Shown here piece after piece: positions 5,486 to 27,700 of a DNA stretch of 64,000 nucleotides. The notes under the pieces are model-generated. The model was not told where the DNA came from. It saw only the letters and a list, made by a program, of their open reading frames with translations, and searched no databases. Made by a program: the position numbers and the translations under genes. Origin of the DNA: Patescibacteria group bacterium (GTDB lineage Bacteria > Patescibacteriota > UBA1384 > XYA2-FULL-43-10 > 1-14-0-10-43-13). The stretch is taken from positions 85,561 through 149,560 of the forward strand of contig JBAZBD010000001.1 of assembly GCA_041671645.1 (NCBI GenBank). The letters run 5' to 3'. The number at the start of each line of letters is the position of its first letter. Position 1 is the stretch's first letter.

Positions 5486-6445
5486 CTATTTTTTGCCATG
5501 AAACTTCTGGTGCACTTCTCGCAGGTGCTGGTCGGTCACATGAGTATAAATTTGGGTCGTGGTGATTGATGAGTGGCCAAGCATAGATTGGACACTTCGA
5601 ATATCGGCACCATTGATTAATAGATCGGTTGCAAAAGAATGACGCAGAGTATGAGGCGTGCATTTTTTGGTTATGCCGGCCAATCCAGCGTACTTCTTTA
5701 CAATTCGCTCTATCGAACGAACGGTCAATCTCTCTCCCTTGGGCGATAATAGTAAAGGGTCGAGTGTCGGAGTGTCGGAGTGTCGGAGTGTCGGAGCTTC
5801 TGGCCTCTCTGCCTCTCCGCCTCTGTGCCCTTTGTTTTTATCATACTGATCTATCCAATACACCGCTGAGTCAGAGAGGAAGACAACTCTGATTTTTTTA
5901 CCCTTGCCCAGGACCGATATTTCACCCCGATCGAAATTGATGTCAGAAGTATCGAGCGCCGCCAGCTCAGAGACGCGCATACCAGTCGAGAATAGAACTT
6001 CTAATATTGCTCTGTCACGAAGACCAGTCACTTTGGTCGTATCAGGCTTCTCTAATATTCCAGAGACTTCTTCGCCTCCCAGGAAGCTGATTTCGCGATC
6101 CCCAGTCTTGGCGACGGGCACTTTCTCTGGCGCTAATGTCTCGATCCCGCGCCAGGAAAGATAGCGCAAGAACGCCCGCAGGGCCAAAATGTGATAATTT
6201 TGAGTAATCAATTTTAGTTCTAATCCCTCTTGGTCGGTCAGACGATTGACATGCAGGCGATATTTGCGCACGATTTCCTGAGTAATATTTGCTGGAGTCA
6301 GCTCCGCCCCAGAATTATTTTCCGCAAGATAGTCCAAGAATCGGGAAATATATCGATCATAATTTTCAATTGTCAGAACAGCCCGACCCTTTTCGAGCTC
6401 ACAATGTTCTAGAAATTGTCTTTTGAGTTCTTGCAGCGAAGCCAT
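5486..6445 (-). CDS. xerD: Tyrosine recombinase XerC/XerD family
   Basis: HTLRHSFATDLLINGADIRSVQSMLGHSSITTTQIYTHV catalytic region with an N-terminal core-binding domain. The likely start is MASLQEL at 6445. It contains a tandem-repeat-encoded insert. Confidence 0.85.
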   Translation of the reverse strand: MASLQELKRQFLEHCELEKGRAVLTIENYDRYISRFLDYLAENNSGAELTPANITQEIVRKYRLHVNRLTDQEGLELKLITQNYHILALRAFLRYLSWRGIETLAPEKVPVAKTGDREISFLGGEEVSGILEKPDTTKVTGLRDRAILEVLFSTGMRVSELAALDTSDINFDRGEISVLGKGKKIRVVFLSDSAVYWIDQYDKNKGHRGGEAERPEAPTLRHSDTPTLDPLLLSPKGERLTVRSIERIVKKYAGLAGITKKCTPHTLRHSFATDLLINGADIRSVQSMLGHSSITTTQIYTHVTDQHLREVHQKFHGKK

Positions 6446-6483
6446 GATTGATAACTTTATACTTTTAACTTTATAGCTAGTTT

Positions 6484-7095
6484 CTAATCCACGTCCCATT
6501 TGTGTTCGTTGTTGTGAACAAGCCAGTAAGCCACGATGCCGGAGGAGATGCCAAGGAAGGCACCGGCCAGGACGTCAGATGGATAGTGTAGCCCTGCCCC
6601 CACACGTCCGGCCCCAACCAGAATTGCCAGGAGAAACAATACCATCCCAAGTCTTTTGTGCCCATAGAGAAATATGCTGGTGGCGATGGCAAAAGCAACA
6701 TAAGTGTGAACTGAGGGAAATGAGACGCTATAGACCCGAAGCCCCTCAATAATTGGCGTCATTACTTCGCTGCTATGGCTGATGAATGGTCTCGGCCGGC
6801 GCCAAAAAAGCGCTATTGCAAGATCGACAAATCCGGCGATTGCCATAGCGGCAAATGTACAGTAAAACGCATTTACTTTGCCCCGCAGGATCAGATAGAT
6901 ATAGGAGAGAAAGAAAAATATGATGCCATATTTGGCACAGAAAAGATAAATCTCGTTTAGCCATGGCCGTCCGTGGATAGCACCATGGAAGAAGAGATAG
7001 GTCTGGTAGTCATAGAATCTGGCTGTATCAAATAAATGTTCCATGACATTATTATACAGGACTGGCTTTCGTCTACCAACTTTTGATAAAATCAC
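6484..7095 (-). CDS. PAP2-family phosphatase (undecaprenyl-diphosphatase/phosphatidic acid phosphatase type 2-like)
   Basis: PAP2 motifs: K...RP (FWRRPRP), PSVH (FPSVHT) and SR...H...D-like (GRVGAGLHYPSDVLAG). The true start may be internal (MEHLFD). Confidence 0.7.
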   Translation of the reverse strand: MILSKVGRRKPVLYNNVMEHLFDTARFYDYQTYLFFHGAIHGRPWLNEIYLFCAKYGIIFFFLSYIYLILRGKVNAFYCTFAAMAIAGFVDLAIALFWRRPRPFISHSSEVMTPIIEGLRVYSVSFPSVHTYVAFAIATSIFLYGHKRLGMVLFLLAILVGAGRVGAGLHYPSDVLAGAFLGISSGIVAYWLVHNNEHKWDVD

Positions 7096-7098
7096 TCT

Positions 7099-7665
7099 AT
7101 GAACGCAGATGAAATTAAGAAAATCCGTACCGAAAGAAATCCCGAGGAAGAGACACTCTGGCGCAAGATTGCTAAATGGGTCCTGATCGTGGCGATTATT
7201 TTGGTCTTCATCGAATTAATTACCAAGCCGCTTCGCCATCACTGGGCAGATGATTACTTGGAGCGGGGCGACCAATATCTAATACAGAAGAAATATCTTT
7301 CAGCCGAGCTTGAATATCAGAAGTCGGCCATATTTTACAAAACAAGTTTGGCAGAAGATCGTCAAGAATTGGCAAATCAAGCCCAGACGGATGTGCTCAA
7401 ACTCAAGCCATTTCTTCAATCCAAAAATATTAGCAAAGCAATCGAGGATTTTGAGACAGCAACTGCCAAATACACTCATTACGACGCCCTGAGGGTGAGC
7501 AAAGAGCTTTATGAGAAGGGCGAGCTCCAACTGGCCCTTGTCGCTCTCGATAATGACCCAGACAAAGCCAACGACGAACACATAAGCTTCGACAAGATTA
7601 TAAACAAAGCGATTTTGGCCAGACTCGAACTTTCCAGCAACGCAAAGCAAAAGTACAGGGAGTAA
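7099..7665 (+). CDS. Hypothetical membrane-anchored protein (single N-terminal TM, helical C-terminal domain)
   Basis: Hydrophobic segment WVLIVAIILVFIELI with no recognisable domain. Confidence 0.4.
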   Translation: MNADEIKKIRTERNPEEETLWRKIAKWVLIVAIILVFIELITKPLRHHWADDYLERGDQYLIQKKYLSAELEYQKSAIFYKTSLAEDRQELANQAQTDVLKLKPFLQSKNISKAIEDFETATAKYTHYDALRVSKELYEKGELQLALVALDNDPDKANDEHISFDKIINKAILARLELSSNAKQKYRE

Positions 7666-9690: not shown

Positions 9691-12501
9691 ATGATGAATA
9701 TTCTCGAAAAATTGAACTTATCAAAACAGAGCAGAATAATAGCCTTCTGCATTTTTGGATTTTTCCTTGTCGTTCTAGCTTTCTTGGTCCACCCTACCTT
9801 AACACTGGCCGGTACTGGGACTACCAGTAATCCAGCCACTTCATTTAATCCTCCGACAAGTTTAGCCAAAATCTATGAAGTTCTGGGCACCAACAACGGC
9901 GGTGTAGGTCACGAGATCCGATCTCTTTGGATCACCATGATGGGTATCGTGAATTCGCTGATAGTCTTAGTTCTCCTTTTTGTCGCTTTTGCGGAAATAC
10001 TACGCTTGAATGTCAGTACTTACGGAATCAAGAAGATATTGCCTACCCTAGTCCTGGCCGTACTAGCCGCCAACTTTAGCTACATTCTCTGTCGTTTCAT
10101 AGTCGATGTTGCCAACGTAATGCTGACTCTCTTTTTGAGTGATACCAATACCAAATGTATTACAGAAGGCATCAAAGTCTCAAAGTTCTTTCATGCCGAC
10201 ATCGAATCAATCATCAAAGATTTGAATGCGAACAAGGCAGGAGGTACTTCCGGTGGCCTTTTGACGGCATTGGCCTTGGTAATTTTTTCGATTGTCGCGG
10301 CGGTAATCACCTTAGTCCTGGCTTTTCTCTTTACTATCAGGAATTACATTATATATCTACTTGTGATTGTAGCTCCGATTGGCTTCATGGCCATGGCTCT
10401 GCCCCAAACCAAAACTTACTTCGGCCAATGGTGGAGCATGATGGTGAAATGGACTTTCATGCCTACTGTATCGATTGCCATCATCTGGATGGGTGGGCAA
10501 TTGCTCAAACTATCAGGCATAGGAGACTCCCCGCTCATGGGTATGGTTCTCTCTGTTGCCTTCTTGGTCCTTGCGATCCAGGTCCCCTTCAAGCTCGGCG
10601 GCCCAATCATGCAAAAATGGGGTGACATGGGCAAGAAAGCCTGGGGATCAACAGGTGGAGCTGCCGCCAATAAATGGGGTAGCGGCATCAAGGACTACTG
10701 GACTAATCAGGGGAAAAGCGTGGCCATGCGCGGCTGGAACAACTGGCGCATGACTGGATTAAATATGGTCCGCAAAGGCAACGGTTTCCAACGTGCCTTG
10801 GGAAACAGCTTCCTCTTCGGCTCGGGCGGAGACAAGGCTAAAGCCAATGTCAAATTTGAAGAAGATTTTGCAAAGGGTCTGACTGAGGGTATCCAGGCTC
10901 GTCACTACTACAAAGAAGACAGCACAGGCAAAGCAAGCAAAGCAGGCAAAAACCTCCAAATGCGCCGAGAATATCGGGCGAACCGTGCAGGCGAGGAGAA
11001 AGAGTATGAGGCCTATGCCAAAGAAGATATTATGAAGGTAGGGGCGACCGATCCAGAAGACGAGATGTACACCACCCTCAAGGCATGGCGCGCTTCTTCT
11101 GGACATGCCAGACAGAGAATGGCTATAGCCGAACAGCATATGAACGATTTAGTTGGGCAAGGTACCTTCGCCTCGATCCAGGGATATTTGATGAAAAAAG
11201 AAGACCAGAGTGAGGAAGAGATCAGAGTAGACGCGATTAAGAACAATCCCACTATTACAGACGCTGAGCTTAACAAGATTGTTGAGGAGACCGTAAAGGC
11301 AAGAAAAGAAAGAGACCAGGCAGAATACAAGAAGGTACTGGGAATGAACCAAGATCAATTCAAGGAATGGAGCGAATTCCAGATATTTGTAAATACCGAG
11401 AAAGAAAGTACTAATCGATTGAAAGAAAAAGCCGAGAAAGACCAGCTCGTCAAGCCGACAATGGATCAGCTTGCTATCCATGAACAAGCCGAGCTTTCTC
11501 AAGAAACCAAGCTTACAACACAGAAATTCAAAGAACTCTCTGACGAATTGAAAAAATTCGCCAACGGTATACAGACGAGTGGCAGAAAATTAAGTGAAAT
11601 GACCCAAGAGGAAAGAAACCACTTGCAGTCCAGCGCTTTCAGCGATGACGAAAGAAAGAAGTTTTCTGCCTATCTTAACAACCAGGGTCGCGCCACCGTC
11701 CGCCTTCGAGAGATGGGCGTATTGAATGAGAACGAGGAGTTCCGAGGCAGCGGTGACGCTCACGACTCCGCAATTGCTAAGGCCGTTGAGACGAGAGAAG
11801 CAGAGTTTATCGAGAAATTTATCAAGGGCGAGATGAAAAACGGTAAGAGAGCCGGAAAGGTAAGAATCGACGAGACTACGGGCAGGATTTCTCATATTCC
11901 AGCTCACTTGAGAAACCTGGTCGAACAAGATGCAGACGGGAACATCAAGCTAAGGCGTATGGATAGGACCACCTATACCAGAGGATTGGCTGTTGCTAAC
12001 GATAAAACCAAGGGAAGAGTTGCGGACTATTCCGCTATGACTGTCGACACCCTAATAAATCTGCTTACTGCAGGGGACAAAAAAGACAGCATCACCGCCG
12101 AAGACATCCAGGCCTTTAGAGCTGGACATGCCACCTCAGATACCAATAAGCGTAGCCGTATGATGGCCATGATAGCTTCACTTGCCGCAAAACTCGACAA
12201 GGCAAACGAAGCCAATCCAGCCGCTGAATTCATTATCAGTGGGCTTAGCCGTGATGAGACTACTGGGACCGACGAGACTCAGGAATTATTATCGGAACTT
12301 GAAAAATCTGCGGCGACTGGAGCCGCTTGGTCGACAGGCAAAGGTATGGAGGAGGCGTTAAAAGCAGCGCGGGATGCGTCTGCCGGTGACATAACGGAGT
12401 TTCGTAGAACTTTGACTACTGTTTACGCGACAATCCCCCAAAATCAAAGAGGTACCGTCAACTCTATTATTAGAAAATTTGTCAGAACTGGATCGTATTA
12501 A
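9691..12501 (+). CDS. VirB6/TrbL-like polytopic membrane protein with roughly 600-aa charged coiled-coil C-terminal extension
   Basis: Five to six TM segments across the N-terminal 330 aa with VirB6-like architecture. It is followed by a K/E-rich helical tail and sits in an operon with VirB3/VirB4 homologues. Confidence 0.55.
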   Translation: MMNILEKLNLSKQSRIIAFCIFGFFLVVLAFLVHPTLTLAGTGTTSNPATSFNPPTSLAKIYEVLGTNNGGVGHEIRSLWITMMGIVNSLIVLVLLFVAFAEILRLNVSTYGIKKILPTLVLAVLAANFSYILCRFIVDVANVMLTLFLSDTNTKCITEGIKVSKFFHADIESIIKDLNANKAGGTSGGLLTALALVIFSIVAAVITLVLAFLFTIRNYIIYLLVIVAPIGFMAMALPQTKTYFGQWWSMMVKWTFMPTVSIAIIWMGGQLLKLSGIGDSPLMGMVLSVAFLVLAIQVPFKLGGPIMQKWGDMGKKAWGSTGGAAANKWGSGIKDYWTNQGKSVAMRGWNNWRMTGLNMVRKGNGFQRALGNSFLFGSGGDKAKANVKFEEDFAKGLTEGIQARHYYKEDSTGKASKAGKNLQMRREYRANRAGEEKEYEAYAKEDIMKVGATDPEDEMYTTLKAWRASSGHARQRMAIAEQHMNDLVGQGTFASIQGYLMKKEDQSEEEIRVDAIKNNPTITDAELNKIVEETVKARKERDQAEYKKVLGMNQDQFKEWSEFQIFVNTEKESTNRLKEKAEKDQLVKPTMDQLAIHEQAELSQETKLTTQKFKELSDELKKFANGIQTSGRKLSEMTQEERNHLQSSAFSDDERKKFSAYLNNQGRATVRLREMGVLNENEEFRGSGDAHDSAIAKAVETREAEFIEKFIKGEMKNGKRAGKVRIDETTGRISHIPAHLRNLVEQDADGNIKLRRMDRTTYTRGLAVANDKTKGRVADYSAMTVDTLINLLTAGDKKDSITAEDIQAFRAGHATSDTNKRSRMMAMIASLAAKLDKANEANPAAEFIISGLSRDETTGTDETQELLSELEKSAATGAAWSTGKGMEEALKAARDASAGDITEFRRTLTTVYATIPQNQRGTVNSIIRKFVRTGSY

Positions 12502-12509
12502 ATTTATTT

Positions 12510-13298
12510 ATGGACAAAGATTACACTAATTTGATTAGGCTACTAATTCAGGCAGATGACAGATCACTTGGTGACGAGTCAGTCACTTCTATTTTGTCGC
12601 GAGCTCAATCCGTCGACGCTTCTGTCAAGAGGACAGTGGCTGAAAATTATGATGATATCAAAATATTTGTCGCTTCAAGGAAAGCCGACATTTATCCTCG
12701 TCATCTCCTGTTGGAAAGGCTTCAGCTGAAATTACTCGACGCCGTGCTTCTCGATGTCAATGCGTCTCAAGTTTCATCCTGGAAACCCGAACAGATTATC
12801 GAAAAGATAAATCATGACATTGTTGAGGGCAAGGGAGACTTTAAGTTAAATAAAATAGACAATATCCTGGACATTATTCACAAGATCCAGACCGTGGAGA
12901 AAGTAAACCGCTCCATCGACCTGATCTATTATTATGATCTTGCCCAGAAGGCATATTTTCACATGCCATATTTTCGGAACCTAGAACAAAATGTTATTGA
13001 GAATATAATTCGCGATTTGGAAAACAATTTCCCTAGAGTTAGATACACCTTGTCCGATGAGACAGCCTCCAAGAAAATAGCCACTGCCTGCTTGCTGTCC
13101 AAGGGATTCACTCAAAGCCAGCTATCTCCGCTGACTGCACCATCACTTTTCGAGATCATGAAGGACATTTTCTTTTGCTGTGTGGCGACCCTAATATTGA
13201 GAAGCACAAACAAAAGTAATTCATATACCTCCGCTGAGGCAGTCGACACCCTCGACCTTCTCATGGTTGATGATCAAATCATGAGCAATTGGGATTAG
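12510..13298 (+). CDS. Hypothetical cytoplasmic protein of T4SS locus
   Basis: ORF in the operon with no recognised motifs. Confidence 0.4.
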   Translation: MDKDYTNLIRLLIQADDRSLGDESVTSILSRAQSVDASVKRTVAENYDDIKIFVASRKADIYPRHLLLERLQLKLLDAVLLDVNASQVSSWKPEQIIEKINHDIVEGKGDFKLNKIDNILDIIHKIQTVEKVNRSIDLIYYYDLAQKAYFHMPYFRNLEQNVIENIIRDLENNFPRVRYTLSDETASKKIATACLLSKGFTQSQLSPLTAPSLFEIMKDIFFCCVATLILRSTNKSNSYTSAEAVDTLDLLMVDDQIMSNWD

Positions 13299-13399
13299 TA
13301 CTTCGCCGAGCTGACCTTATAAATTTTGGCACGGCTGATCTGTTGCTGTACTTTGGTATCAATGTTATAATTTCCCTAGAGATTAATTTGGAGGGGATA

Positions 13400-13819
13400 T
13401 TGAGATTTAAGGTTCCGCAAAATATCGACATGCAGGATCGCATTTTGGGGCCACTGACCATGGTTCAATTTATCTATGCCGTGGTCGGATTTGGCATTTG
13501 CTACGCTATATTCTCGGCCATACCTGCGCCGCTCTCCTATCTGCTGGTCATACCAATCGGCCTTTTTGTCGTATGTCTCGATTTCGTCAAGGTCAACGAG
13601 AGGCCTTTCCTAAACTTTTTCATGTCAGCGATCCAATTCGCCGGTTCGCCCAAACAAAGGTTTTGGAGCCAGGGCAGCGATTCAGATATGGAAGTGGAGA
13701 TTTATCAAGCCCAAGTCCAACAAACAACCCATCCACACAAAGATATTAGCCACGCCGAGATCGAAGCCCTGGCTGGGAAAATAGACACTATTTCAGGCAA
13801 ACAGATGATTGAAAGATAG
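13400..13819 (+). CDS. VirB3/PrgI-like small two-TM membrane protein
   Basis: Two hydrophobic helices (FIYAVVGFGICYAIF and LLVIPIGLFVVCL), size, and position immediately upstream of VirB4. The likely start is TTG 13400 after GGAGGGG (or ATG 13430). Confidence 0.5.
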   Translation: MRFKVPQNIDMQDRILGPLTMVQFIYAVVGFGICYAIFSAIPAPLSYLLVIPIGLFVVCLDFVKVNERPFLNFFMSAIQFAGSPKQRFWSQGSDSDMEVEIYQAQVQQTTHPHKDISHAEIEALAGKIDTISGKQMIER

Positions 13820-13824
13820 TTTTT

Positions 13825-14811
13825 ATGGCATTTTCAACTCAACAACAAATTGAGATTGCGGGTATCAAGGACGGTATTATCATCATGAAAGATGGAACGT
13901 ACCGTGTCATTTTGGAGGTGACTGCTACCAACTTTGCGCTCAAAAGCGAGATGGAGCAAAACTCTCTAATCATGCAATATCAGAGCTTCCTAAATTCCCT
14001 ACATTTTACGATCGAGATCACCATACGCTCGAAAAGATTGGATTTAGCTCCTTATCTGACCAAGATGAAGGCACTGGGCGACAAACAGCCGAGTGAACTG
14101 ATCCGAGAGCTATCCGCTGATTACGTCGACTTTATCGGCAAGCTCGTCACCATCGCCAACATTATGAAGAAAAGCTTCTTTGTCACCATCGCTTACTCTC
14201 CTATTTCGGTCAAACAGGTCGGGCTTTTCAACATGCTATTCGGGCAAAAAACACAAAAATTTGATCATTTGAAAATCTCCGATGTTGATTTCAAGAACGC
14301 AACTGAGAAATTGCTTGAAAACGCCGGTATAGTCGCTTCTGGCCTAGGCTCGATGGGGCTCCACTGCTTTCAGCTTTCAACCGAACAGATCATTGAGCTC
14401 TTTTATCAAATTTACAATCCAGCTGAATCAACCAAGGAGCGATTGACCGACGCTGAGATGCTAGCTTCTCAGGTCGTCTCCACCAAGAAAGCTCCGGCGG
14501 ATGGCAAGGTGCCGGAGATCGATGGTATCACGCCGATGCTGATTGACAACACTCATATTGTGACGGCCCAGATGCAGCAGGAGGCGGAGCAGAGACGACA
14601 GGCCACTGAGATGGAAAATATGAATGCTCCTGCTGGAACGCAAGTACCACAGACCGCAGCCACAGAACAGGCTGGGGCCAGCAAAGCACCAGAGCTCAAT
14701 GAACTAGACGTTGCCACGGTAAACACCTCGGCATCAACCCCAACTACCAATTCTCCATTAGATAATTTGAGTAAAGACGATGACGGACCAGAACCCAAAC
14801 CCACAACCTAA
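13825..14811 (+). CDS. VirB4/TraE-family ATPase, N-terminal portion (first fragment of a split gene)
   Basis: IKDGIIIMKDGTYRVILEVTATNFALKSEMEQNSLIMQYQSFLNSLHFTIEI matches the N-terminal domain of Gram-positive VirB4 (PrgJ/TcpF type). It ends in a Q/A/T/P-rich low-complexity tail. Confidence 0.55.
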   Translation: MAFSTQQQIEIAGIKDGIIIMKDGTYRVILEVTATNFALKSEMEQNSLIMQYQSFLNSLHFTIEITIRSKRLDLAPYLTKMKALGDKQPSELIRELSADYVDFIGKLVTIANIMKKSFFVTIAYSPISVKQVGLFNMLFGQKTQKFDHLKISDVDFKNATEKLLENAGIVASGLGSMGLHCFQLSTEQIIELFYQIYNPAESTKERLTDAEMLASQVVSTKKAPADGKVPEIDGITPMLIDNTHIVTAQMQQEAEQRRQATEMENMNAPAGTQVPQTAATEQAGASKAPELNELDVATVNTSASTPTTNSPLDNLSKDDDGPEPKPTT

Positions 14812-16714
14812 TCCTGTCCAGCCGGACGCTCAAGCCCCAGCCCCAGTTCCACAGGCTCCTCCGGCCGATGCTAGAGCGATTGCAAACCAGAACCTGAAGT
14901 CCAGAGAGAAAAGCTCGATGACTCCAGACGAATTTTGGAACAAAAAGGCAGAAGCGTCCAAAATCAAGAGTGGGGCGACCTCAGTTCGAGATATTGTCGC
15001 ACCTGCCTCTTTCGCTGTTTCGTCCAATTTTATCCAAATCGACAATTATTTCGTCAAAACTCTCTTTGTCTTCACCTACCCCCGGTATATCGAGACGAAT
15101 TGGCTCTCGCCAATTATCAACTACGATATTTCGATGGATATCGCCATGTATATCCACCCGATGGAGACCAGAGACGTCATGACCGAGCTCAAGACTCAAG
15201 TTGGTAAGCTCGAGTCCACCCTTTCAATCGAGCGGGAAAAGGGCCAGCCCAGAGACCCAGAAGTCGAGACCGCGCTCGGTGACGTTGAGGCGCTTCGAGA
15301 TGTTCTCCAGCGTGGCGAGGTCAGATTATTTCAATTTGGGCTTTACTTCACTATCTACGCCGGCTCAGCCGAAGAACTTCGCACCGTCATGGATCAGCTC
15401 GAATCAACCTTGGGCGGACTCCTGATTTATACCAAAGAGACACTTTTCCAAATGGAGCAGGGCTTCACTGCCACTTTGCCTCTGATGCAGGACAAGATCA
15501 ACGTCCTTCGCAATTTGGACACCGCCTCTCTCTCCTCTACTTTCCCCTTCGTCTCGAGCGAATTGACCCAAGACGATGGAATTCTGTACGGAATCAATCG
15601 CCACAACAATTCCCTAATTATTTTCGATCGATTTTCTCTTGAAAACGCCAACTCTCTAGTCCTGGCCAAATCCGGCTCGGGTAAATCGTACTTGGTCAAA
15701 TTGGAGGCCTTGCGCTACTTGATGCTTGGCACCGACGTAATCGTGATCGACCCAGAAAACGAGTACAAAACTCTTTGCGATTCCGTCGGCGGTAGTTACT
15801 TGGATATTTCGTTAAACTCCGACAAACGAATTAATCCGTTCGACCTCCCAATCAACCCCTACGAAACAGGCGAAGACGTCCTCCGCTCTAATATCGCTTC
15901 CCTCCATGGCCTGATCAATATCATGGTCGGTGGCCTCACCCCAGAAGAAGACTCCACCGTAGACAAGGCTCTTTATGAGACTTACGCCATCAAGGATATT
16001 ACGACCGATCCAGAAAGCCAGACCAATCAGCCTCCTCTGCTTCAGGACTTCTTCAATATCCTCTCCAACATGCAGGGCACTGAATCGCTTCGGGCCAGAC
16101 TGGTCAAATACACCGAGGGCACCTACGCCAATCTTTACAACCAGCCGACCAATTTTGAGCTCAAAGAAGGTTTCGTTTGCTTCTCTGTCCGCGACTTGGA
16201 AGATCAGCTCCGCCCAATCGCTATCTATACTGTCCTTGATTATATCTGGACCAAAGTCAGAATGAACCGAAAACAGCGCATCATGATCGTGGATGAAGCC
16301 TGGTGGATGATGCAATATGAGGATTCTGCCAAGTTCCTTCACGGCCTGGCCAAGAGAGCAAGAAAATATAACCTTGGGCTTACAATCATCAGTCAGGACG
16401 TCGAGGATTTCTTGGGTAGCCGTTATGGCAAAGCCGTCTTGGCCAACTCCTCAATGCAAGTCCTGATGAAACAATCGACCGCTTCGATCAATTTGATCGC
16501 TGATGTTTTCAATTTGACTGAGGGCGAGAAATATTTGCTTCTCGAGTCTGATGTCGGAGAAGGTCTCTTCTTCGCGGGCTTGAATCACGTAGCTTTCAAA
16601 GCGATTGCTTCCTACACCGAAAATGAAATTATTACTGTCGAGCCAGAAGAGCTGGCAAAACAGGGGCCAGAAGATGCTGTAGCGGCAGCAGACCCTAACA
16701 CACCAACCCAATGA
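14780..16714 (+). CDS. virB4: VirB4/TraE-family T4SS ATPase, middle and C-terminal ATPase portion
   Basis: Walker A AKSGSGKSYLV and Walker B IMIVDEAWWMM. FVKTLFVFTYPRYIETNWLSPIINYDISMDI matches the VirB4 middle region. It starts with a P/Q-rich low-complexity stretch in a different frame from the upstream fragment. Confidence 0.85.
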   Translation: MTDQNPNPQPNPVQPDAQAPAPVPQAPPADARAIANQNLKSREKSSMTPDEFWNKKAEASKIKSGATSVRDIVAPASFAVSSNFIQIDNYFVKTLFVFTYPRYIETNWLSPIINYDISMDIAMYIHPMETRDVMTELKTQVGKLESTLSIEREKGQPRDPEVETALGDVEALRDVLQRGEVRLFQFGLYFTIYAGSAEELRTVMDQLESTLGGLLIYTKETLFQMEQGFTATLPLMQDKINVLRNLDTASLSSTFPFVSSELTQDDGILYGINRHNNSLIIFDRFSLENANSLVLAKSGSGKSYLVKLEALRYLMLGTDVIVIDPENEYKTLCDSVGGSYLDISLNSDKRINPFDLPINPYETGEDVLRSNIASLHGLINIMVGGLTPEEDSTVDKALYETYAIKDITTDPESQTNQPPLLQDFFNILSNMQGTESLRARLVKYTEGTYANLYNQPTNFELKEGFVCFSVRDLEDQLRPIAIYTVLDYIWTKVRMNRKQRIMIVDEAWWMMQYEDSAKFLHGLAKRARKYNLGLTIISQDVEDFLGSRYGKAVLANSSMQVLMKQSTASINLIADVFNLTEGEKYLLLESDVGEGLFFAGLNHVAFKAIASYTENEIITVEPEELAKQGPEDAVAAADPNTPTQ

Positions 16715-16715
16715 A

Positions 16716-18161
16716 ATGCCTGACCTCGATGTCTCAAAAGTTGCAGGCGGGTTCAAGATCCAAAAATATCTGATTCCGATCGGCGGATTTTTTGTCGTCA
16801 TGCTTTTCTCTGTGATCGGTTTTTCTTTTTTTGGGATAATGAGGGACAATCGAATTCCCGAAGTGACACCCATGACCTCAATTTCTGGCGCATCTGTCAC
16901 CTGTCAGGACTGGGGCGCAGGCACAAAGGGTGCCGTCAATTTCCAGGAAGATATTACATATGCTGCCAACAATTCCAAGATCCAGCCAGCTCTGCTAGGC
17001 GCGATTTTTTCGGCTGAGCATGGAGGCTGGCCAGTTTCAAATTGGGCTACTGACGACTATACGACACCAAACCAAACAAGCGGTGCGATGGGCCCGTTTC
17101 AATTCATGCCTGGTACATGGGCTGAACAGTGCAAAAAATACAATAACGATCAGGTTAAAAAATTAGGCTTAGCCCCAATCGCAGATTGCGGTCCGGATAC
17201 CGCCAAGGATTTCAAATCTGCGTCCAAAGTCTCAGCCTATTATCTGAAATATCTGGCCGGCCGGATTACGAAGAATAGTAAAACTGCTGAAAAAGCTGAT
17301 ATTCAAGGTATAGCCGTTTCTTATAACGGTGGCCCAGGAACTTACGATGATTGGAAAGACTCTGGATTTGCGACCCTAAATAGCGAATCCAGCGGATACA
17401 AAACGAAGGTTTGGGATCGCTTTCAGGTTCTATACAAAGGGTGCTCCTCCAATGACGCTACCAATCTACCGACAACTATCTCCTCCTTTGACACTTCATT
17501 TATGAACGCAGAGCCGCTGAAGAGTTGGCTGAAGAATCGACCCAAGATTAACACACAGAGTCAGACCGCCACAGGCATTACTCTCCACTGGACGGGAAGC
17601 TGGGACAAGAATGTGACAGCAGAGCAGGCAGTCAGTAAGTTGATAACCGGTTGGTACAATCGTGATACGGAGACAGACGGCACGAAGTCTTCGGTATTTA
17701 ACCATCTGGTGATTGATCCGGCTGGCAAGGTTTGGCAGCTTATCCCGCTAGATGTAAGACAAGCTGGTTCGGGCAAGGGAACAGTAAATAATATTAGCGC
17801 CAATGACTTCACTATCGGCATTGAGATAGCAGGCACGGGGCCGGCAGATGTGGGGCCCGACACTGCCGCCTACAACGCAGCCCTTACTACTGTCGAAAAA
17901 CTGTTATCCGAGATTCCAACCATCAAGAACGACAGAGGCAATGACCTTAATTTCAAGGCTAAGTCTGGAATATTCGGTCACTTCCAAACCGCAACTGCGA
18001 CAAGCACGAGCACAGTTGGCTGTTCAAGCGCCAAGGATGACCCTGGGCTGGCCTTCATGAAGGAACTTTGGGATGACCTCAAGATTTGGCAGGGGCTCCG
18101 GACAAATGGCAACGGTTGTTATTTCGAAAATGGAAAAAAGAAATATTACCCACCAAGATAA
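16716..18161 (+). CDS. Bifunctional peptidoglycan hydrolase: SLT lytic transglycosylase plus N-acetylmuramoyl-L-alanine amidase (amidase_2/PGRP) domains; VirB1 functional analogue
   Basis: SLT motif AIFSAEHGGW...GAMGPFQFMPGTW. The C-terminal amidase_2-like region is NHLVIDPAGKVWQLIP...FTIGIEIAG. An N-terminal TM anchor is present. Confidence 0.7.
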   Translation: MPDLDVSKVAGGFKIQKYLIPIGGFFVVMLFSVIGFSFFGIMRDNRIPEVTPMTSISGASVTCQDWGAGTKGAVNFQEDITYAANNSKIQPALLGAIFSAEHGGWPVSNWATDDYTTPNQTSGAMGPFQFMPGTWAEQCKKYNNDQVKKLGLAPIADCGPDTAKDFKSASKVSAYYLKYLAGRITKNSKTAEKADIQGIAVSYNGGPGTYDDWKDSGFATLNSESSGYKTKVWDRFQVLYKGCSSNDATNLPTTISSFDTSFMNAEPLKSWLKNRPKINTQSQTATGITLHWTGSWDKNVTAEQAVSKLITGWYNRDTETDGTKSSVFNHLVIDPAGKVWQLIPLDVRQAGSGKGTVNNISANDFTIGIEIAGTGPADVGPDTAAYNAALTTVEKLLSEIPTIKNDRGNDLNFKAKSGIFGHFQTATATSTSTVGCSSAKDDPGLAFMKELWDDLKIWQGLRTNGNGCYFENGKKKYYPPR

Positions 18162-18248: not shown

Positions 18249-18611
18249 ATGTCAAACCCCGACATCTTAAATCTGGAAGAAAGAACCGCAAAATTTGGTG
18301 AGGCGATAATACATTTATGCCAAGAATCAAAGGTAACAATTATTACCGAGCCAATTATACGACAGATAATACGTTCAGCCACGAGTATCGGTGCAAATTA
18401 CATGGAGGCGAATGGGGCCTGCTCAAAGAGTGATTTTAGAAATAAAATCTTTATCTGCAAGAAAGAGACAATGGAGACAAAACACTGGCTGAGAATGCTA
18501 TCGTCAGCTTTACCAGACAAATCCGATGAATTGCGAGAGTTATGGAAAGAAGCGCAGGAGTTAACTTTGATATTTTCTAAAATTGCCGGGTCCTTAAAAT
18601 CTAAAAATTAA
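18249..18611 (+). CDS. Four-helix-bundle protein (23S rRNA intervening-sequence protein family, TIGR02436-like)
   Basis: QIIRSATSIGANYMEANGACSKSDFRNKIFICKKETMETKHWLRML matches the family core (SIGANxAEG...SKxDF...KE..ET..WL). Confidence 0.7.
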   Translation: MSNPDILNLEERTAKFGEAIIHLCQESKVTIITEPIIRQIIRSATSIGANYMEANGACSKSDFRNKIFICKKETMETKHWLRMLSSALPDKSDELRELWKEAQELTLIFSKIAGSLKSKN

Positions 18612-19933: not shown

Positions 19934-21787
19934 TTGGCAGATACGGGACGCAAAAAATTTTTTGATGTTGTATTTAAGAGAAAAGTCAGTCAGCCTAAGC
20001 CGGCTGGCAGTTTTGCTGATGAAGTCGCACCTTACGGCAAATCTCTAACCGACGAGGAAATCGAGAAAGACGAGAAGAATATGGCCCCGCAGGGGGGATC
20101 CTTTGGGGCGAGTCCCGTTGGGGCGGGCACGATCGGCACGCCAAGACCAGGCAGGGCTAATAATCCAAGCGGCGGGGAAGCTTTTGGCAGAGATTTAAAC
20201 GCCCGGTCTTCTTCAGAAAATCCAAATGCGAATGGAGAGAAAGAGGAAAATGAGGATGAAGATGAAGACCCAGAAGACGAGGGTGGAAATGATAGCGATC
20301 AGCCAAAGAAGAAAAATCCTGAGTCCGAAAATTTAGAAAATGAAGCCTTAGAGAAAGCCCAGCAAGAAGAAACTGATCGGGTTGCCAAGAAGGAGGGCCG
20401 TTCGGATCTCCAACAGCCAGATCCAATCCAATCGGGCCATATGAATGCGGAGCCCCAGAAACCAGGGGCTGAGGGACAGAAAAATGGAGACACTGGCGAC
20501 GATGAATCGAGCCAAAAAGCCAAACAAGCTGGGCAAGAAGGCACACCGAAGCCGGCAGCCGCTCAGGGGAACACTGCCGCCCAAAAGGTAGGCCAAGGAG
20601 CGAAGACGGCTGGTAAAGCCGTTAGTAAAGTGGCCGCTGGCGCAGGTCGAGCTATTATGGCCTTCTTCGCCACGCCTCCAGGCCAGATCGTCTTAATCGT
20701 TATCATCTCAATAATTCTAATTGCCATCTTGGTTGGCGTATCTATGAACGGAAGCAAGAAGCAAAACGCACTGAACGGTACAGGCGGGGCTCCGATTGAA
20801 ACTAGACCGATCTCAGACGACGACGCACTGACCAAGCTTCTGATGCTCTCGGGGGATGCCAAAGTCCAGACCGAAATCTCTGACGCACAGATCAACAAAC
20901 TAATCGCTGCTCTCGACGTCGCCATAGCCGATGAAAAAATTGGCGATTACACCGTCCCTGACGGTAATAATAAAATTCCGCTCAAGGATGCCCTGACTGC
21001 GGTCAGAGCGAAATTTACAGCTGCTTCCAAGCTCACCGACGCAAATCAAAAGAAGACTGATCTCCAAGCCGCAATCAAATCCCTACAAGCGCTAGCGGCC
21101 AAGCTTAACACTTCCTGCTTACAGCTTCGGTCTTCCACTTTCTCAAATGTTGCGAAAGCCAACGACAAGCTCGGTCTTCTGACTGGGTGGTTCGTCAGAA
21201 AAGATGGCGCAAAGATTCCAGCGGACAGCTCAATGTGTCAATTCTTTCTCTTCGTAGAAGAAAGCAAAGCCGACAGTCTGCTCAAGGAGAACGGCGTAAG
21301 TATCCTACAACTTTCCTCAATCGTTGGGGCGCACGATATTTATGTGACCAGCAGTATGAACAGCAAAAATGCGGCCATAAACGCTAGTCAAGACAACATC
21401 TGCGTGAAATGTGAGACCAGCTACACCCCAGCTTGCGACAAGAAGTATAATATTACATACAAAACCCAGGGCGGCCAATCGGCCACAGGTTCATGGGCTT
21501 GTATCATGTCTCAGCATGCGACCGGGCATGGCGTTGATATAAATAATCTGAATACAGAAACCGCTGAGGCGAAACAAAAATCAGAAGCCTTTGGCCGATG
21601 GGTGATACAACATTTGCCCGAGTTAAATACAAAGAAAATACTGATTCACCAGTTGATTATCGGCGACAGAGAGTGGGTGCGCGACAACGTAGACAAGACA
21701 GATGAACAAAAGACAGGCCCAATGACAAAAGTCGCGGGGCATACCAACCATACCCACATCGGTTTTGGCAAATACGTAACAAAATAA
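19934..21787 (+). CDS. Hypothetical protein: acidic disordered N-terminal region, single TM, C-terminal domain with M15/VanY-like metallopeptidase motif
   Basis: The E/D/K-rich first roughly 230 aa are followed by the TM segment IVLIVIISIILIAILVGV. The C-terminus contains SQHATGHGVDIN (M15 SxHxxGxAxD-type motif) and a His-rich GHTNHTHIGF. TTG start after GGAGGGG. Confidence 0.45.
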   Translation: MADTGRKKFFDVVFKRKVSQPKPAGSFADEVAPYGKSLTDEEIEKDEKNMAPQGGSFGASPVGAGTIGTPRPGRANNPSGGEAFGRDLNARSSSENPNANGEKEENEDEDEDPEDEGGNDSDQPKKKNPESENLENEALEKAQQEETDRVAKKEGRSDLQQPDPIQSGHMNAEPQKPGAEGQKNGDTGDDESSQKAKQAGQEGTPKPAAAQGNTAAQKVGQGAKTAGKAVSKVAAGAGRAIMAFFATPPGQIVLIVIISIILIAILVGVSMNGSKKQNALNGTGGAPIETRPISDDDALTKLLMLSGDAKVQTEISDAQINKLIAALDVAIADEKIGDYTVPDGNNKIPLKDALTAVRAKFTAASKLTDANQKKTDLQAAIKSLQALAAKLNTSCLQLRSSTFSNVAKANDKLGLLTGWFVRKDGAKIPADSSMCQFFLFVEESKADSLLKENGVSILQLSSIVGAHDIYVTSSMNSKNAAINASQDNICVKCETSYTPACDKKYNITYKTQGGQSATGSWACIMSQHATGHGVDINNLNTETAEAKQKSEAFGRWVIQHLPELNTKKILIHQLIIGDREWVRDNVDKTDEQKTGPMTKVAGHTNHTHIGFGKYVTK

Positions 21788-21790
21788 AAG

Positions 21791-24700
21791 TTGAGGGATG
21801 TGAAGAAATTTTTGCAAAAATTTGTGTTCACGCTGGTTGCGCTGATTTTGGTGTTGAACCCATATATCGAGCTCATCCCGACAGATTACTTCTCCAGCAA
21901 GGCCAAAGCGGCGATCAACGATATCCCTGATCCAGAGATCGCGTCAACCGATGAGAGCGATCATGATTATGAGGAGGAAGTAGATAGCGATTACACCCCA
22001 GAATACTCTCCGAATTTCATCCCCGACCCAGTCAAAGATGCCTTCTCCCTCGTGGTGACTGATACCACTGAGACCTTTACTGATCTTACCAGCACGAGCA
22101 GTCTGCTTGAAGATATTGGTGATGCCAAAATCATCCTGACCCAGAGTGATTTTGACGCGATCAAGGCCCTTCGTTGCATGAAGAATCTACTCCCGCCATT
22201 CGCCGAGAACATGTCAAAACTCTATGAGTTTACGATTCCCGAGGGTATCATTAATTCTAACGAACAATACAAAAACTTCCCAGCCAAAGAGGAAATTGAC
22301 GATGCAGTCTCTAGTGAGGGATCTCAAGCGACGCCAAGATTCGGCACACCCGAAGAATACCTCTCCTATCTCAAATACGGAGACTCTGGCGACCCGCTCC
22401 TCACCACAAACCAGAACAAGGAAAAATTTGTTAACTATGTTGATTCAGCCAAAGCATATTACGGCGACGATCGCTTAAGGGCAGACTGGCTTGCGCAAAT
22501 CGACAACCTTGCAGAGAACAAAACTCTCGATACCGATATAAATACTCTAGCTTGCGTCACTCGGATTACTGACGCAGAACAGCTGATGGCTCTGATTCGA
22601 GAAAGCAAAACTGATGAGACCAAGCGACAGTACTTGCTCGACAGAATCAATGAGAGTCTAGACGGACTCAAGATTGACATCCGCGCAGTCAAGGCCCTGA
22701 TTTATTTGGTTACGCCTAAGAACAAGGGAGGCGCTGGACACTGGAGAATCCGCGTCAAGAAATTCCTCCAAACTGGCCGCAAATCAGGTGAGTCTGATGC
22801 GTTGCTGACTGGAGCCGCCAAAACAGTGAACTGTGATCCGGCCAAATCCGCCGCTGAATGCGGCATGGCTCAGTACCAACCGGGCGAGGCGACGATAGAA
22901 GAGAAAGATGGTAGCGCCTACACTGCCTATCTAGAGTCTATGAACGACGGTGAGCAAAATGATTCAATGCACCAGCAGGGTCAGGCTATTGATATTTCTG
23001 AGATTGACGACATAAGATGCACGATACGGAAAGAGGTTAAGCAGTGGGGAAATGTTAAGGGCCAGAACACTCCTCAACCAACAAGACCAATTAAGTTGGC
23101 CTGGCAGACTACAGAAGGGTTCAACAAATCAGAGGGTGCCAATGACTTTGATATGATGTCTCTTATCAAATCGATGGCGACCTCCGAGGTGGTCGACTTC
23201 CTGGGCTCGATCAACGAGACTGATATGTCTGACTATGAGGGCGACCTGACCAGAGCCAGTTTTGGAGATCTAGTCAACGTAGTGGGCAAGTCCCTAATGA
23301 CTGAAATTCTCGCTTCGCCTGATCATAATTTGAAGGGCTATAGCACCGACAGCACTCTTAGAAACCTGGGTGGTATCTATATCGCTGACTATCTCGGGAT
23401 TAATCGAAAATTATTTACAGACAAACATATCAACACTCCGGGAGATCTCTTCTATGAAATCGGCCGCGGCGCGATCGAGACTCGGATGAAATTGCCTCTC
23501 AACTCACTCGACACGACCAATCCTGCCGTGCCCCTCTTCTCGACCTTGGCCCAGACAGGAACTAGGAAATTGGAGTATGAATTGGGGCTAGCCAACGGAG
23601 ATCTGGCGCGCCTAGACCCAAACTCGGTTGCCAGCATCTATATTGGCGCCCGTGTGATCGAAGGAACGCTTAATTTCAAGAAATTCGTTTGGCCAAGCCA
23701 GGACAAGCCATTTGCTGAGTTTGCCAGCACAGCAGAGGGTCTGAATTGGTTTGATCTGCTTCGGCTCAGCCCAGACACAATCGACATGATGCTTCACCTG
23801 AAGTCTGGTGTGACTGAAGCCTTGGTCAAGGGCAAGACCTTGACTCCGGCTCAGTATGACAAAATGATGAAGTTGCCCGAGGGCACGACGACAGAGTCAG
23901 TCAAGATGAACTCGGACCGATACGCTAGTATCGTTGGGCAAGTTAGATTGGATGAGACAACTTTTGGCTTTCAATACTTCGCCGCCAACGATGCCGCCTT
24001 CTCCTTGCCAACTGGGCTCTGGGCTGAGGTAATCAAATTTAGCCCAGATACTTTGCAACAGAGCCTCGCTGAAGTCGGAATTTATACGCTCTCTCGACTA
24101 TTCGGCGAAGATGATGCTTCTCCTTTGCCAAAGCTAGAAGTGGGAGAGCAGGTTGTCAGTATCCAGACCCATGAGTACGGCAAGGATGTAACTTTCCAGG
24201 CAAATGATGGTAACTTTGGTCGCTGGGTATTCCGAAGTTGGCTTCGAGACAACCTAACCAAATCAACCGAAGAGGCTTGTCAGGCGCCGGCCCGTCCGAT
24301 TGAGGTTGATGTTTCCTTTGATCAAGCTGGCGCTCAGCAGCCAAATCCAAACAGTCTGCTAGATGTTCAAGCAACTTTTGGAACCAATGTATTCAAACCG
24401 GTCAGTCTAGCTCTAGACTACCAAGTCACCTATAATCCAGCCGCCAATGGCATACCACAGCCTTCGAAAACGCTGACCAAAGACGTCTCTGAGATTAGAC
24501 CAATTTCCGAAGAAAAGGCAACGAAATATGGCTTTGTAAATCGAGACTTACAAAGAATCTTTGGCTGTGCATCAGCCAATGGGCGTGATGTCTACCAGCG
24601 GATAGGCTCTGAGCTCCTCTACACCGCCCTGATCAACCAGGCGCTGAGCGAGACTGACCGCGCCAAGATTGACATTATGGACACCGATCCTACAATTCAT

Positions 24701-27700
24701 GTTGCCAACGAAGAGATCAACTTCTACATCCAACGCATCTTCTATATTAAGAAATTGCTTGGACAGATCGACACCCAATACGGCTCAATCGTATCTGAGG
24801 GCAAAGACGACATTAAATCTTTTGTAGATCTTTCGAAACTATCTTATGACCAGCTCAAACAGGTATATGGAGACCTGACCAATCTCCAACTGTTCTCCAT
24901 CAGCAAAATAGCCGCTACCGCCTCACAGACTATGACCGATATCGACACGCTAAAACAGGTGGCCTCCGATTGGAAAGAGTACATGCGGACACGAAGGGCA
25001 GACTTGGTCGGAGATATAGCTGCCGTCAATCAGATTGTTTATCTCGTCAACGAGCTTTGGACCACTATTGCCGAGCTCGATCGTGGCAAGGCTATTAATG
25101 GTGTTGATCGTATTAAATTTCAGCAGATTGATTCTACTCCGCTACAGGAAGTCGTAAACCAGGACAGAAGACAGCAAGCACAAGAGAGATCAGACTCGGC
25201 CAAGAAAAAGGGCCTCTCTGCTTGGCAGGTTGCACAGATGATGTTCGACTGGATTGCCGGTACGATCACTTCCTCCGAGCTCTTTTATCGCCTGGGCGCC
25301 AACTCGATCGAAGCTAACATCGGCCTTCCGCCCAATAGCCTAGTCTACCTAGTCCGCAATTATGACCAAAATGGCATATCTGGCCTCGACGCCTTTTATC
25401 AATCGGTTGGCCAGGCCAGGATTGAGGAAAATTTTGGCATGCCCGCCTTCTATTTCCAGGGCAACTTTGATGCCCAGGCCAAGCCCAACTTCCAATCTGA
25501 CCTGAAGGCAGTCTACAACATGATTACGACGGATTCTGTGCTTAAGCACGATTATCCCGATCTGGCCGCACTATCCGAAGCAGACTTCCTGAAGTATATG
25601 GATAGCCTGCTCACGGCGCCGATGCTCGATTATGCCGCCGATCCCTGGATACAGCTTATCAGGACCCCCGGTAGTCCATATTCGATCAGTAGTGAGCCCA
25701 AGACCCCAGGTGATGATCTCAATGCCTACAAGGCCTTCTACAAGAAAATCGCCGATAGTCAAAAAGCTTATACCAAGAGCACGGCTCATTGGCAGGCAAT
25801 TGTTGACAATGTCGACAAACGTTGGAAAGCCAAGCGCGCCAGTGATGTCAAGGGATTGGGCAGTAGCAAGTACAGCGAATCAACAGTCCAAGACATCGTA
25901 GCAAATATCAAACAGCGCTGCTTCACTGGTGTAAACAAAGCTCAAGCGGATGGTACAGTGAAATGTCTCAATATGACTCGGTCCCCCGAGGATGATCTCC
26001 TTTTCCGTATGGGTCTCCCGCGTGGAAACTTTAACGCTATGACCGCAGAGAATTCAGTCAACAACACGTCCCTCTGGACTCGACTAGCAGGCACTACTCA
26101 GTCAATCGAGCAGGGATTCACAATCGATCAAAACGCGATCAAAGCCCTCTTTACCGGAGAAGATACTCGCTATATTAATCTTTCCCGAAAAGAGAAGCAG
26201 GTGGTCGAGGGTTCTGCTCTCAAAATCAATACCAACGTACTAAGTTTCTACGCTCAGATGCTTAATGGTGAGGTTCTGCCCAACGACACAGATCAGTATA
26301 ATTTGGACACTTGGACTCAGTACTACGTCAGCAACCCGTATGCACCGAAACAGCAAGCCAGTGAGACTTGCCCAGTTCTTTATTTGCCAAAAGGTGACGC
26401 AAGCGGCACCTTTATGGTCAATGAGACTACCCTTGAAAACAATTCATACTGCTATTATGACGCCAAGGGAAGACACTGCTTCAAGAGTTGGGATGAAGCC
26501 CAGCGCTATGCCATTGCCCACGAAGCCGACTCGATAAGACATCTGAAAGTCGTGATAGACGGCAAAGAGCAGGAAATTAGCAACAATATTCTGGGATATC
26601 TTGCCAATCAACTTGTTCTGGCCAACAATGCCGCTTTACCTGACCAAGCGACCACAGATGCCGCCGCAAATGCAAATGTCACCATCCATGGAACTATCGA
26701 ATTAAATCTGAGTGATGTCTACGCAGGACTGGTCAGATTTGTGAATGACAACTCGATGGTCGATATCTTTGGGGATAAGAACAAGAGTATAGCCATGATT
26801 TCGGCCATCGCTGGCTCGACGACTGTGCCGGCTAGTATACTAGAAAAGCTTTTTACTCGTGAACCGAGCGTAAATTCCGTCGCCACTTTCAAGAAGAAGG
26901 TTGGTGTCAAGGAAGCACAAAAAGTTGTCACTTACCAAATTTTTGGAGCTTTGCAACTTGGCCTCGCCGTTGGGCCGGACTACTTCGACGCAGGCGACCT
27001 CTATGATGTCTTGAACGGCGACTACACTGCGCTGACCAACATCGCGACCAATTATATTGATCTGAAGGCTGAGCTGAAGCCTGGCACAACACGTCTTCTC
27101 TACGAAGCTCGCAATCCAGAATCAATTACTTGCGCCCTCGCCCAAGCTGGTGGCTCAATGCTCGGTCGGATCTTTGGCCTCAACAATATTCCGCTCAATG
27201 GGATCCAAAACGTCTCATCATTTAAAGAAGCGGTCGGTCAAGCCAAGGTCGAGGAGACCCTCTCCCTGCCTCGAGGTACCTTCAGGGGCAACAATCTGTA
27301 TGAACTGCTCGACAATGTCGGACCGATCAACTTCATGATCGCCTTTAAGATACCGGTTGACCCATCAGTTGCGAATGGGATTTCTGACGATATCGACAAG
27401 ATACTCAACTCCAACACTAGCTACTCTCAGGGAGCCAATTTGGCCTATCGCTTGACTCGGGTAAGAGATGTTCTCTCGACTCGCAATATTCTTCAAAGTG
27501 ATATTGGCACAGCCATCGCCAATATCAACAGCGCTCTCAAAAATTATTTCATCAATGATCTGCTCAAACAATTTGAAAATGATCCGACCAAGATCCAAGT
27601 TGCCCTGTCGGCCCGTAATCAAAACAATAGAGATTGGTATTATGCGGTCCAGGATTTCTATCAGCAGACCAGTTCACTGGACAAAACTTTTGCGGTCAGC

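Follow-up and report, generated by a model that had tools for sequence, protein, structure and literature searches.

Evidence for a natural fission of virB4 into a TrsD-like gene and an ATPase gene in a Patescibacteria type IV secretion locus

The stretch of DNA analysed here (64,000 nt, the whole of which is referred to as the window) originates from a Patescibacteria group bacterium (GenBank assembly GCA_041671645.1, contig JBAZBD010000001.1, positions 85,561 to 149,560 of the forward strand) and carries genes of a type IV secretion system (T4SS) in which VirB4 is distributed over two plus-strand open reading frames (ORFs). The upstream ORF (N-ORF: 13825..14811, 328 aa, ATG start, frame 1) and the downstream ORF (C-ORF: 14780..16714, 644 aa, ATG start, frame 2) share 32 nt, bounded by the ATG at 14780 and the TAA at 14809-14811; these coordinates and frames, first given in a reading of the locus made from the letters alone (the sequence-only reading), were confirmed in the ORF list. 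Is this a genuine two-polypeptide VirB4, a single gene interrupted by a sequencing error or a +1 frameshift, or the remnant of a recently inactivated T4SS? All three had been offered by the sequence-only reading, which did not recognise an arrangement that had been published for Patescibacteria (Quinonero-Coronel et al. 2025, PMC12102498). The first answer is strongly supported by homologue lengths, related loci, junctions, an independent assembly and selection, and the locus very probably reflects a natural, ancient fission of VirB4 into two co-transcribed genes, one TrsD-like and one encoding the ATPase. That the split exists and is widely conserved is already known for Patescibacteria and, in prototype, for pGO1/pSK41-type plasmids; added here are the anatomy of the junction (variable frame and spacing, 32-nt overlap), estimates of selection, and the description of clade-specific tails.

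Taken jointly, the products of the two ORFs were found to tile a full VirB4, as the sequence-only reading had supposed. On profile NF045971 (CD1110-type VirB4, 752 positions), residues 6-129 of the N-ORF correspond to positions 2-126 and residues 56-607 of the C-ORF to positions 174-735; on NF045975 the pieces abut (N-ORF 12-201 at positions 111-279, C-ORF 54-617 at positions 276-892). Positions 18-128 of TIGR00929 were also matched by the N-ORF, so that the VirB4 N-domain homology whose absence would have spoken against a split gene was detected with three profiles. The C-ORF alone scored above the curated cutoff of NF045971 (368.8 bits vs 325, E 5.6e-110), contains the Pfam domains P-loop_TraG, AAA_10 and DUF87, and matched PDB entry 4AG5, the VirB4 C-domain, with residues 262-615 (E 8.5e-49). 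It is composed of a P/Q/N-rich head (residues 1-55), the remainder of the VirB4 N-domain (~56-261) and the ATPase C-domain (262-615), the latter with both nucleotide-binding motifs intact: Walker A (GSGKS, residues 299-303, 15674..15688, plus strand) and the Walker B region (VDEAW, residues 504-508, 16289..16303, plus strand). The annotation of 14780..16714 as the VirB4 ATPase polypeptide is based on NF045971, the Pfam domains, 4AG5 and pSK41 TrsE. A complete N-domain is not present on this polypeptide, positions 1 to ~173 of NF045971 being contributed by the N-ORF. Both parts occur in a single 865-aa ORF of one related locus (L034:2613-5210), where they are joined by a linker of ~36 aa and where the N-ORF aligns to the N-terminal part.

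For the identity of the N-ORF, profile, structure and gene-order comparisons were combined. A match to the NCBIfam TrsD/TraD family NF041427 was obtained (E 7.2e-6, residues 7-122 on profile positions 17-142 of 201), and PF26593 (TraC-like) is assigned to all N-ORF homologues in precomputed annotation; a local Pfam scan of the N-ORF returned nothing, even at E<=10, and a phmmer search against PDB sequences gave chance matches only. An AlphaFold (AF2) model built on 51 homologues (mean predicted local distance difference test score, pLDDT, 73) consists of a well-folded alpha/beta core (residues 1-215, 13825-14469), a confidently predicted helix (243-266) and a disordered tail (267-328, pLDDT 39-49). 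When this model was compared with the PDB by Foldseek, the only credible matches were 14 TrwK/VirB4 chains of the R388 T4SS (best E 2e-3, probability 0.89-1.0). The profile of the N-ORF family aligned in register with TrsD of pSK41 in hhalign (E 2.6e-4). As is TrsD, the N-ORF product is a small stand-alone protein encoded between a VirB3-like gene and a shortened virB4. Judged by homology, the product of 13825..14811 (plus strand) is a predicted TrsD homologue equivalent to about the first 200 residues of the canonical VirB4 N-domain, an assignment for which NCBIfam, PF26593, Foldseek and the selection estimates given below were used. The sequence-only reading was thus right to regard the piece as a VirB4 N-terminal domain, and missed that it belongs to a known family (TrsD, PF26593 TraC-like).

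Whether the split is real at the level of the DNA was assessed from relatives and from a second assembly. An error of sequencing or assembly, in which a single-base indel in the repetitive segment would have split one virB4, might be suspected from the compositional bias of the junction, where indel errors are commoner, and from rare relatives with one fused ORF (L034, 865 aa; P0190, 898 aa). Each of the 120 best N-ORF homologues (44-100% identity), however, is a stand-alone protein of 297-385 aa. An exhaustive search with the N-ORF core (residues 1-215) against a library of 1.84 billion proteins (50%-identity cluster representatives) gave 1986 representatives at E<=1e-3; among the best 150 of these, 149 have lengths of 97-478 aa, and one (P0190) is a full-length fused VirB4. 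Furthermore, both VirB4 halves were mapped onto 72 related loci: an N-gene followed by a separate ATPase gene was found in 22, a fused gene in five (L034 being an example), and an N-gene without an ATPase in the locus in 45. The split is common to relatives down to ~35% identity, and all close relatives examined keep two separate genes, with the TrsD-like gene directly upstream of virB4. The independent Logan assembly of SRR18595301 is identical to the window from 10825 to 16490 (5,666 nt), junction included; the same 32-nt overlap was found in L001 and L042, which come from other samples; and in L043 an additional gene lies between the halves. Finally, no homopolymer of four or more nucleotides is present in the only 38 nt in which an indel could fuse the frames (delimited below). 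An error is therefore rejected as practically negligible in probability. The rare one-polypeptide forms L034 and P0190 belong to the same broad clade and have a short linker; they are either re-fusions or retained ancestral forms.

The comparison of orthologous loci that the sequence-only reading had proposed is also informative about the junction itself, with frames and spacings that differ among the 22 split loci. The second gene lies in relative frame +1 in the window, L001, L002, L003, L042, L045, L036 and others, in frame +0 in L004 and L046, and in frame +2 in L005, L007, L035, L043, L044, L069 and others. The genes overlap by 32 nt (window, L001, L042), 14 nt (L045), 11 nt (L002, L003), 4 nt (L035, in the form ATGA) or 1 nt (L044), and are separated at other split junctions by ~14, 56 or 130-150 nt; in L043 the spacer amounts to 611 nt and holds a complete 133-aa gene. 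The start of the ATPase (MTDQN / MDNNNP) is conserved across the split loci, and it is the upstream stop that shifts.

A programmed +1 ribosomal frameshift, by which some or all ribosomes would produce a full-length fused VirB4, was considered against this background. Frame 2 does not open until 14771, and its third sense codon after the stop is the ATG at 14780; any +1 fusing event is therefore confined to the 38 nt from 14771 to 14808. Compatible with such an event are the overlap of the frames with a +1 offset, and the fact that the window, L001 and L042 agree in the final ~9 nt ahead of the stop (ACAACCTAA), even though synonymous sites elsewhere are near saturation. The conservation of the overlap is, however, explained by its dual coding (PTT* in one frame, QPN in the other), and neither a site nor a frame relation is kept among the orthologues, which range from +0 to +2 and from the 32-nt overlap to the 611-nt gap; in addition, the downstream ORF possesses its own conserved ATG, three codons past the frame-2 stop. 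Of the slippery heptamer and pause structure suggested by the sequence-only reading, neither was present: the segment 14771-14808 contains no X XXY YYZ heptamer, and the RNA fold of 14760-14900 is not stable (z = +1.05, with 170 of 200 shuffles folding at least as well). Frameshifting is accordingly rejected, being very unlikely. No motif resembling a Shine-Dalgarno (SD) sequence was found at the junction or ATPase start, as is the case for most genes of the window; among 20 large genes checked (window 1-34000), an SD-like motif within 25 nt upstream of the start occurred in just four, and TTG is the predicted start of several genes. This genome appears to initiate translation largely independently of SD motifs.

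Recent inactivation, that is, a decaying T4SS with the split as a fresh pseudogene, was examined by the proportions of nonsynonymous and synonymous differences (pN and pS) between the window and L001; the pS values of 0.71-0.73 mean that synonymous sites are near saturation. For the N-ORF core a pN of 0.039 was obtained against a pS of 0.73, and for the ATPase body a pN of 0.036 against a pS of 0.71 (pN/pS ~0.05 each). The tails evolve more quickly (pN 0.26 in the N-ORF tail, residues 216-328, and 0.088 in the C-ORF head), both values still lying below pS. Both genes are intact and under strong purifying selection. Nothing beyond the split itself speaks for inactivation, and against it stand, besides the N core evolving like the ATPase body, the conservation of the split among distant relatives, the intact Walker A and B motifs, the intact and tightly packed neighbouring T4SS genes, and the essentiality of the homologous cluster in a cultivated relative (PMC10633639). 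This explanation is also rejected, and is hardly credible.

The sequence-only reading had further placed the split within a low-complexity insert. Its description of the N-ORF tail as Q/A/T/P-rich agrees with the composition of residues 216-328 (T15 A14 P11 Q9 E9 of 113 residues). The segment is nevertheless not of low complexity throughout: residues 240-266 (14542..14622, plus strand), identified by conservation and predicted structure, comprise an IDN motif, in which D241 and N242 are invariant and I240, like V246, nearly so among the 51 homologues, and the helix 243-266 (block pLDDT 88-91). Disorder is restricted to about residues 267-328, the T/A/P-rich C-terminal tail (14623..14808, plus strand; pLDDT 39-49 and composition). 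The P/Q/N-rich opening of the C-ORF was borne out by the composition of residues 1-55 (P11 A8 Q6 N6 of 55). Less support was found for the statement that such inserts are of a kind that this genome places in many proteins: with 40-aa windows, <=10% hydrophobic residues and low entropy as the criterion, three of the 36 window ORFs of >=200 aa were flagged, and two of these three are the VirB4 halves. Nor is a low-complexity insert a tenable cause of the split, an equivalent split being present in relatives and in TrsD/TrsE of pSK41 without such tails. Loci of the L035 type (Woesebacteria) have ~16 + 28 residues between the conserved cores and the ATGA overlap. Since the tail-less split is seen in these loci and in pSK41, and since the linker of fused L034 measures just ~36 aa, the tails are interpreted as later, lineage-specific extensions of free termini. 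In eight homologues (P0202, P0222, P0187, P0147, P0173, P0232, P0262 and P0264) the TrsD core begins 100-230 residues in from the N-terminus; the three extensions that were read (P0202, P0222, P0187) are Q/P/A/T-rich and of low complexity. Disordered extensions therefore occur at either terminus, depending on the lineage. A PrgI-TrsD fusion was tried as an explanation for these N-extended homologues and rejected, with a PrgI domain detected in none of the eight.

The 45 loci with a TrsD-like gene and without an ATPase (labelled Peregrinibacteria, Peribacteria, Gracilibacteria and Altimarinota) gave no ATPase match within 3.5-4 kb on either strand, even at E<=10; they are L006, L008-L023, L025-L033, L037, L038, L040, L047-L056, L058-L061, L071 and L072. 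They reproduce the published exception of the class Gracilibacteria, described as 'notable' with respect to the TrsD-VirB4 association (PMC12102498). In L020 (3039-5103), PrgI is located just upstream of the TrsD-like gene, which is followed by a 146-aa protein of unknown function and by housekeeping genes; a PrgI/VirB3-like gene beside the TrsD-like gene was confirmed in the window, in pSK41 (trsC) and in this one TrsD-only locus. As a separate observation, the TrsD-like gene of L038 (4001-4665), from a Peribacteria metagenome-assembled genome (MAG), is broken, with residues 4-95 in frame 2 and residues 101-210 in frame 1; this break is either a true frameshift or an assembly error.

Such loci raise the further explanation that, instead of being no more than a missing piece of VirB4, the TrsD-like protein partners PrgI autonomously and has its own role (adaptor or regulator). 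The occurrence of the gene away from an ATPase in 45 of 72 loci, its adjoining PrgI in L020, the same exception in the literature (PMC12102498), and the clade-specific extensions of the family, including the conserved helix 243-266, point in this direction; the invariable position of the gene immediately upstream of virB4 in the window and its close relatives, the natural fusions L034 and P0190, and the presence of a Patescibacteria-type VirB4 in most TrsD-bearing genomes (PMC12102498) point away from it. It is judged to have an outside chance, and it is compatible with natural fission rather than exclusive of it. A more specific form, considered similarly improbable, would make the TrsD-like protein an autonomous PrgI-partnered module whose association with the ATPase is conditional (tuned, for example, via helix 240-266 and the tails), and which possibly acts ATPase-free in lineages of the Peregrinibacteria/Gracilibacteria type. 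If this were true, the fission would have created a regulatory or assembly checkpoint in an essential T4SS of Patescibacteria.

For natural fission into two co-transcribed genes, the following mechanism is proposed. The 32-nt overlap (14780..14811, plus strand; defined by the ORF coordinates and also present in L001 and L042), in which the TrsD-like stop and the virB4 start are dual-coding, probably serves to couple the ATPase translationally to the TrsD-like protein. The latter would supply the first subdomain of the VirB4 N-domain, and the C-ORF product the remaining N-domain together with the Walker A/B ATPase domain, the two proteins associating non-covalently into a complete VirB4 protomer. 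In R388 structures, the VirB3-VirB4 contact runs via the N-terminal region of VirB4. By analogy, the TrsD-like piece may dock on PrgI/VirB3 as a membrane-proximal module, the part played in R388 by the VirB4 N-domain. VirB3 itself binds VirB4 and tethers it to the membrane (PMC12102498; R388 inner-membrane-complex structures, e.g. 8RTB, TrwM/VirB3-TrwK/VirB4). That a PrgI gene accompanies the TrsD-like gene on its upstream side fits such an assembly of TrsD-like protein, VirB4 and PrgI. The protomers would then hexamerise, and the ATPase would drive the T4SS, a machine of Gram-positive type on which the epibiotic life of Patescibacteria depends. The Q/P/T/A-rich segments would be lineage-specific disordered growths on the termini freed by the split.

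Several points weigh against this interpretation. The NF041427 match amounts to 25.9 bits, far under the family cutoff of 200, so that the curated cutoff is not reached; the hhalign alignment with pSK41 TrsD is weak (probability 42%, 59 columns); and with so remote a match the Patescibacteria and staphylococcal splits may stem from one event or from two. The assembly of the two products with PrgI was deduced from homology and gene order. The 45 TrsD-only loci imply that tight linkage to virB4 is not obligatory, and the TrsD-like protein may do more than complete VirB4. For annotation, it follows from the preferred reading, that of two natural genes, that the 328-aa 'hypothetical protein' (the name under which the exact N-ORF product is recorded by NCBI, in a Patescibacteria-group MAG) should be described as a TrsD-like VirB4 N-domain protein, and that neither a frameshift nor a pseudogene should be flagged, or 'repaired', in this pair. 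In the only genetic study so far (Ca. Southlakia epibionticum), few machines proved essential to a Patescibacterium living as an epibiont, and the T4SS was among them.

The VirB4 pair is situated in a T4SS cluster with VirB3-like (PrgI), VirB6-like (TrbL_3) and VirB1-like (SLT + Amidase_2) neighbours, all on the plus strand. The earliest recognisable T4SS gene of the operon encodes a VirB6/TrbL-like polytopic membrane protein (9691..12501, 936 aa), for which the local Pfam scan gave no match; Pfam PF19590 (TrbL_3) is precomputed on the identical product in the independent assembly L074. It is followed by a tightly packed gene for a 262-aa protein of unknown function (12510..13298), contained in the ORF list, called also in L074 and without a match in the Pfam scan, and by the gene of the PrgI family (VirB3-like) membrane protein (13289..13819, 176 aa; PF12666, E 3e-10, 40.9 bits vs a cutoff of 27). 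Downstream of the VirB4 pair lies the gene of a VirB1-like cell-wall hydrolase (16716..18161, 481 aa) with an SLT transglycosylase domain (PF01464, E 5e-6) and an Amidase_2 domain (PF01510, E 4.2e-13). The genes of the operon are tightly packed, with spacings of 4, 8, -10, 5, -32 and 1 nt. Among the window ORFs that were scanned, which were a part of the total, no member of a VirD4 or relaxase family was detected.

Further genes were observed around this cluster. A tyrosine recombinase (Phage_integrase with SAM-like N domain) is encoded on the minus strand at 5486-6499, ~1.2 kb upstream of an unannotated/T4SS gene block starting at 7099/7728, and could be XerC/D or what is left of an integrative element. 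Immediately after the T4SS genes, a 617-aa ORF (19934-21787) with a long acidic, G/N/P-rich low-complexity region and without a Pfam match is followed by a giant ORF of 3,163 aa (21791-31282); the products of both may be surface proteins or effectors associated with the T4SS. A small gene of the four-helix-bundle '23S rRNA-intervening sequence protein' type (PF05635) is found at 18249-18611, between the hydrolase gene and the one that follows. The same gene type occurs twice in L043, between the TrsD-like gene and virB4 (4744-5145) and just upstream of the TrsD-like gene (3056-3424); the presence of such genes inside T4SS operons gives the impression that a mobile family of small genes has inserted repeatedly.

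Among known systems, the closest plasmid counterparts are TrsD + TrsE (alternatively named TraD + TraE) of pGO1/pSK41 (staphylococcal conjugative plasmids, MPF_FATA, pGO1 subclass), in which a small homologue of the VirB4 N-terminus is likewise encoded directly upstream of a shortened ATPase. The products measure 227 aa (trsD) and 672 aa (trsE, DUF87 ATPase) in pSK41 and 328 and 644 aa here. The gene order is the same: trsC (VirB3-like), trsD, trsE, trsF (membrane protein) and trsG (CHAP hydrolase) in pSK41 (NC_005024); PrgI, TrsD-like, VirB4 and hydrolase in the window. The C-ORF is 23% identical to TrsE (E 1e-32), and its residue 71 aligns with TrsE residue 36, from which an equivalent break point in pSK41 and the window follows. 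The two systems differ at the junction (a 14-nt gap between trsD and trsE, a 32-nt overlap in the window) and in the Q/P/T/A-rich tails and the conserved helix 243-266, both of which are present in the window and neither of which is present in pSK41. They differ also in context, pSK41 being a plasmid conjugation machine with relaxase and coupling protein, whereas the system of the window is chromosomal; the sequence likeness of pSK41 TrsD to the N-ORF is remote.

In comparison with canonical one-chain VirB4 proteins (TrwK of R388, PDB 7O41/8RTB; the CD1110 type of Gram-positive integrative and conjugative elements), one polypeptide is replaced here by two. The whole canonical profile is covered by both ORFs jointly, the N-ORF model resembles TrwK, and the C-domain resembles 4AG5 and TrwK; unlike in canonical VirB4, fused forms are rare in the clade of the window (L034; one of the 150 best representatives). 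The word TrsD does not occur in the main text of Guglielmini et al. 2014 (PMC4027160). In the survey of Quinonero-Coronel et al. (PMC12102498), by contrast, TrsD outnumbers every other T4SS component of Patescibacteria: 2,272 homologues were counted with the CONJScan/MacSyFinder TrsD profile, and an association with VirB4 was seen for 1,664 of these. There, TrsD resembles the VirB4 N-terminus and usually adjoins virB4, a Patescibacteria-type VirB4 is present in most of the genomes that have a TrsD homologue, and the essential genes listed for Ca. Southlakia epibionticum ML1 include the TrsD homologue adjoining VirB4. In the same species, the T4SS cluster is essential for epibiotic growth and is closest to Gram-positive conjugative systems (Wang et al. 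2023, PMC10633639). With a Patescibacteria-clade VirB4, TrsD, PrgI/VirB3, VirB6 and VirB1 encoded near one another, the T4SS of the window is the same system as that published for Patescibacteria (PMC12102498, PMC10633639), with no substantive difference between the two.

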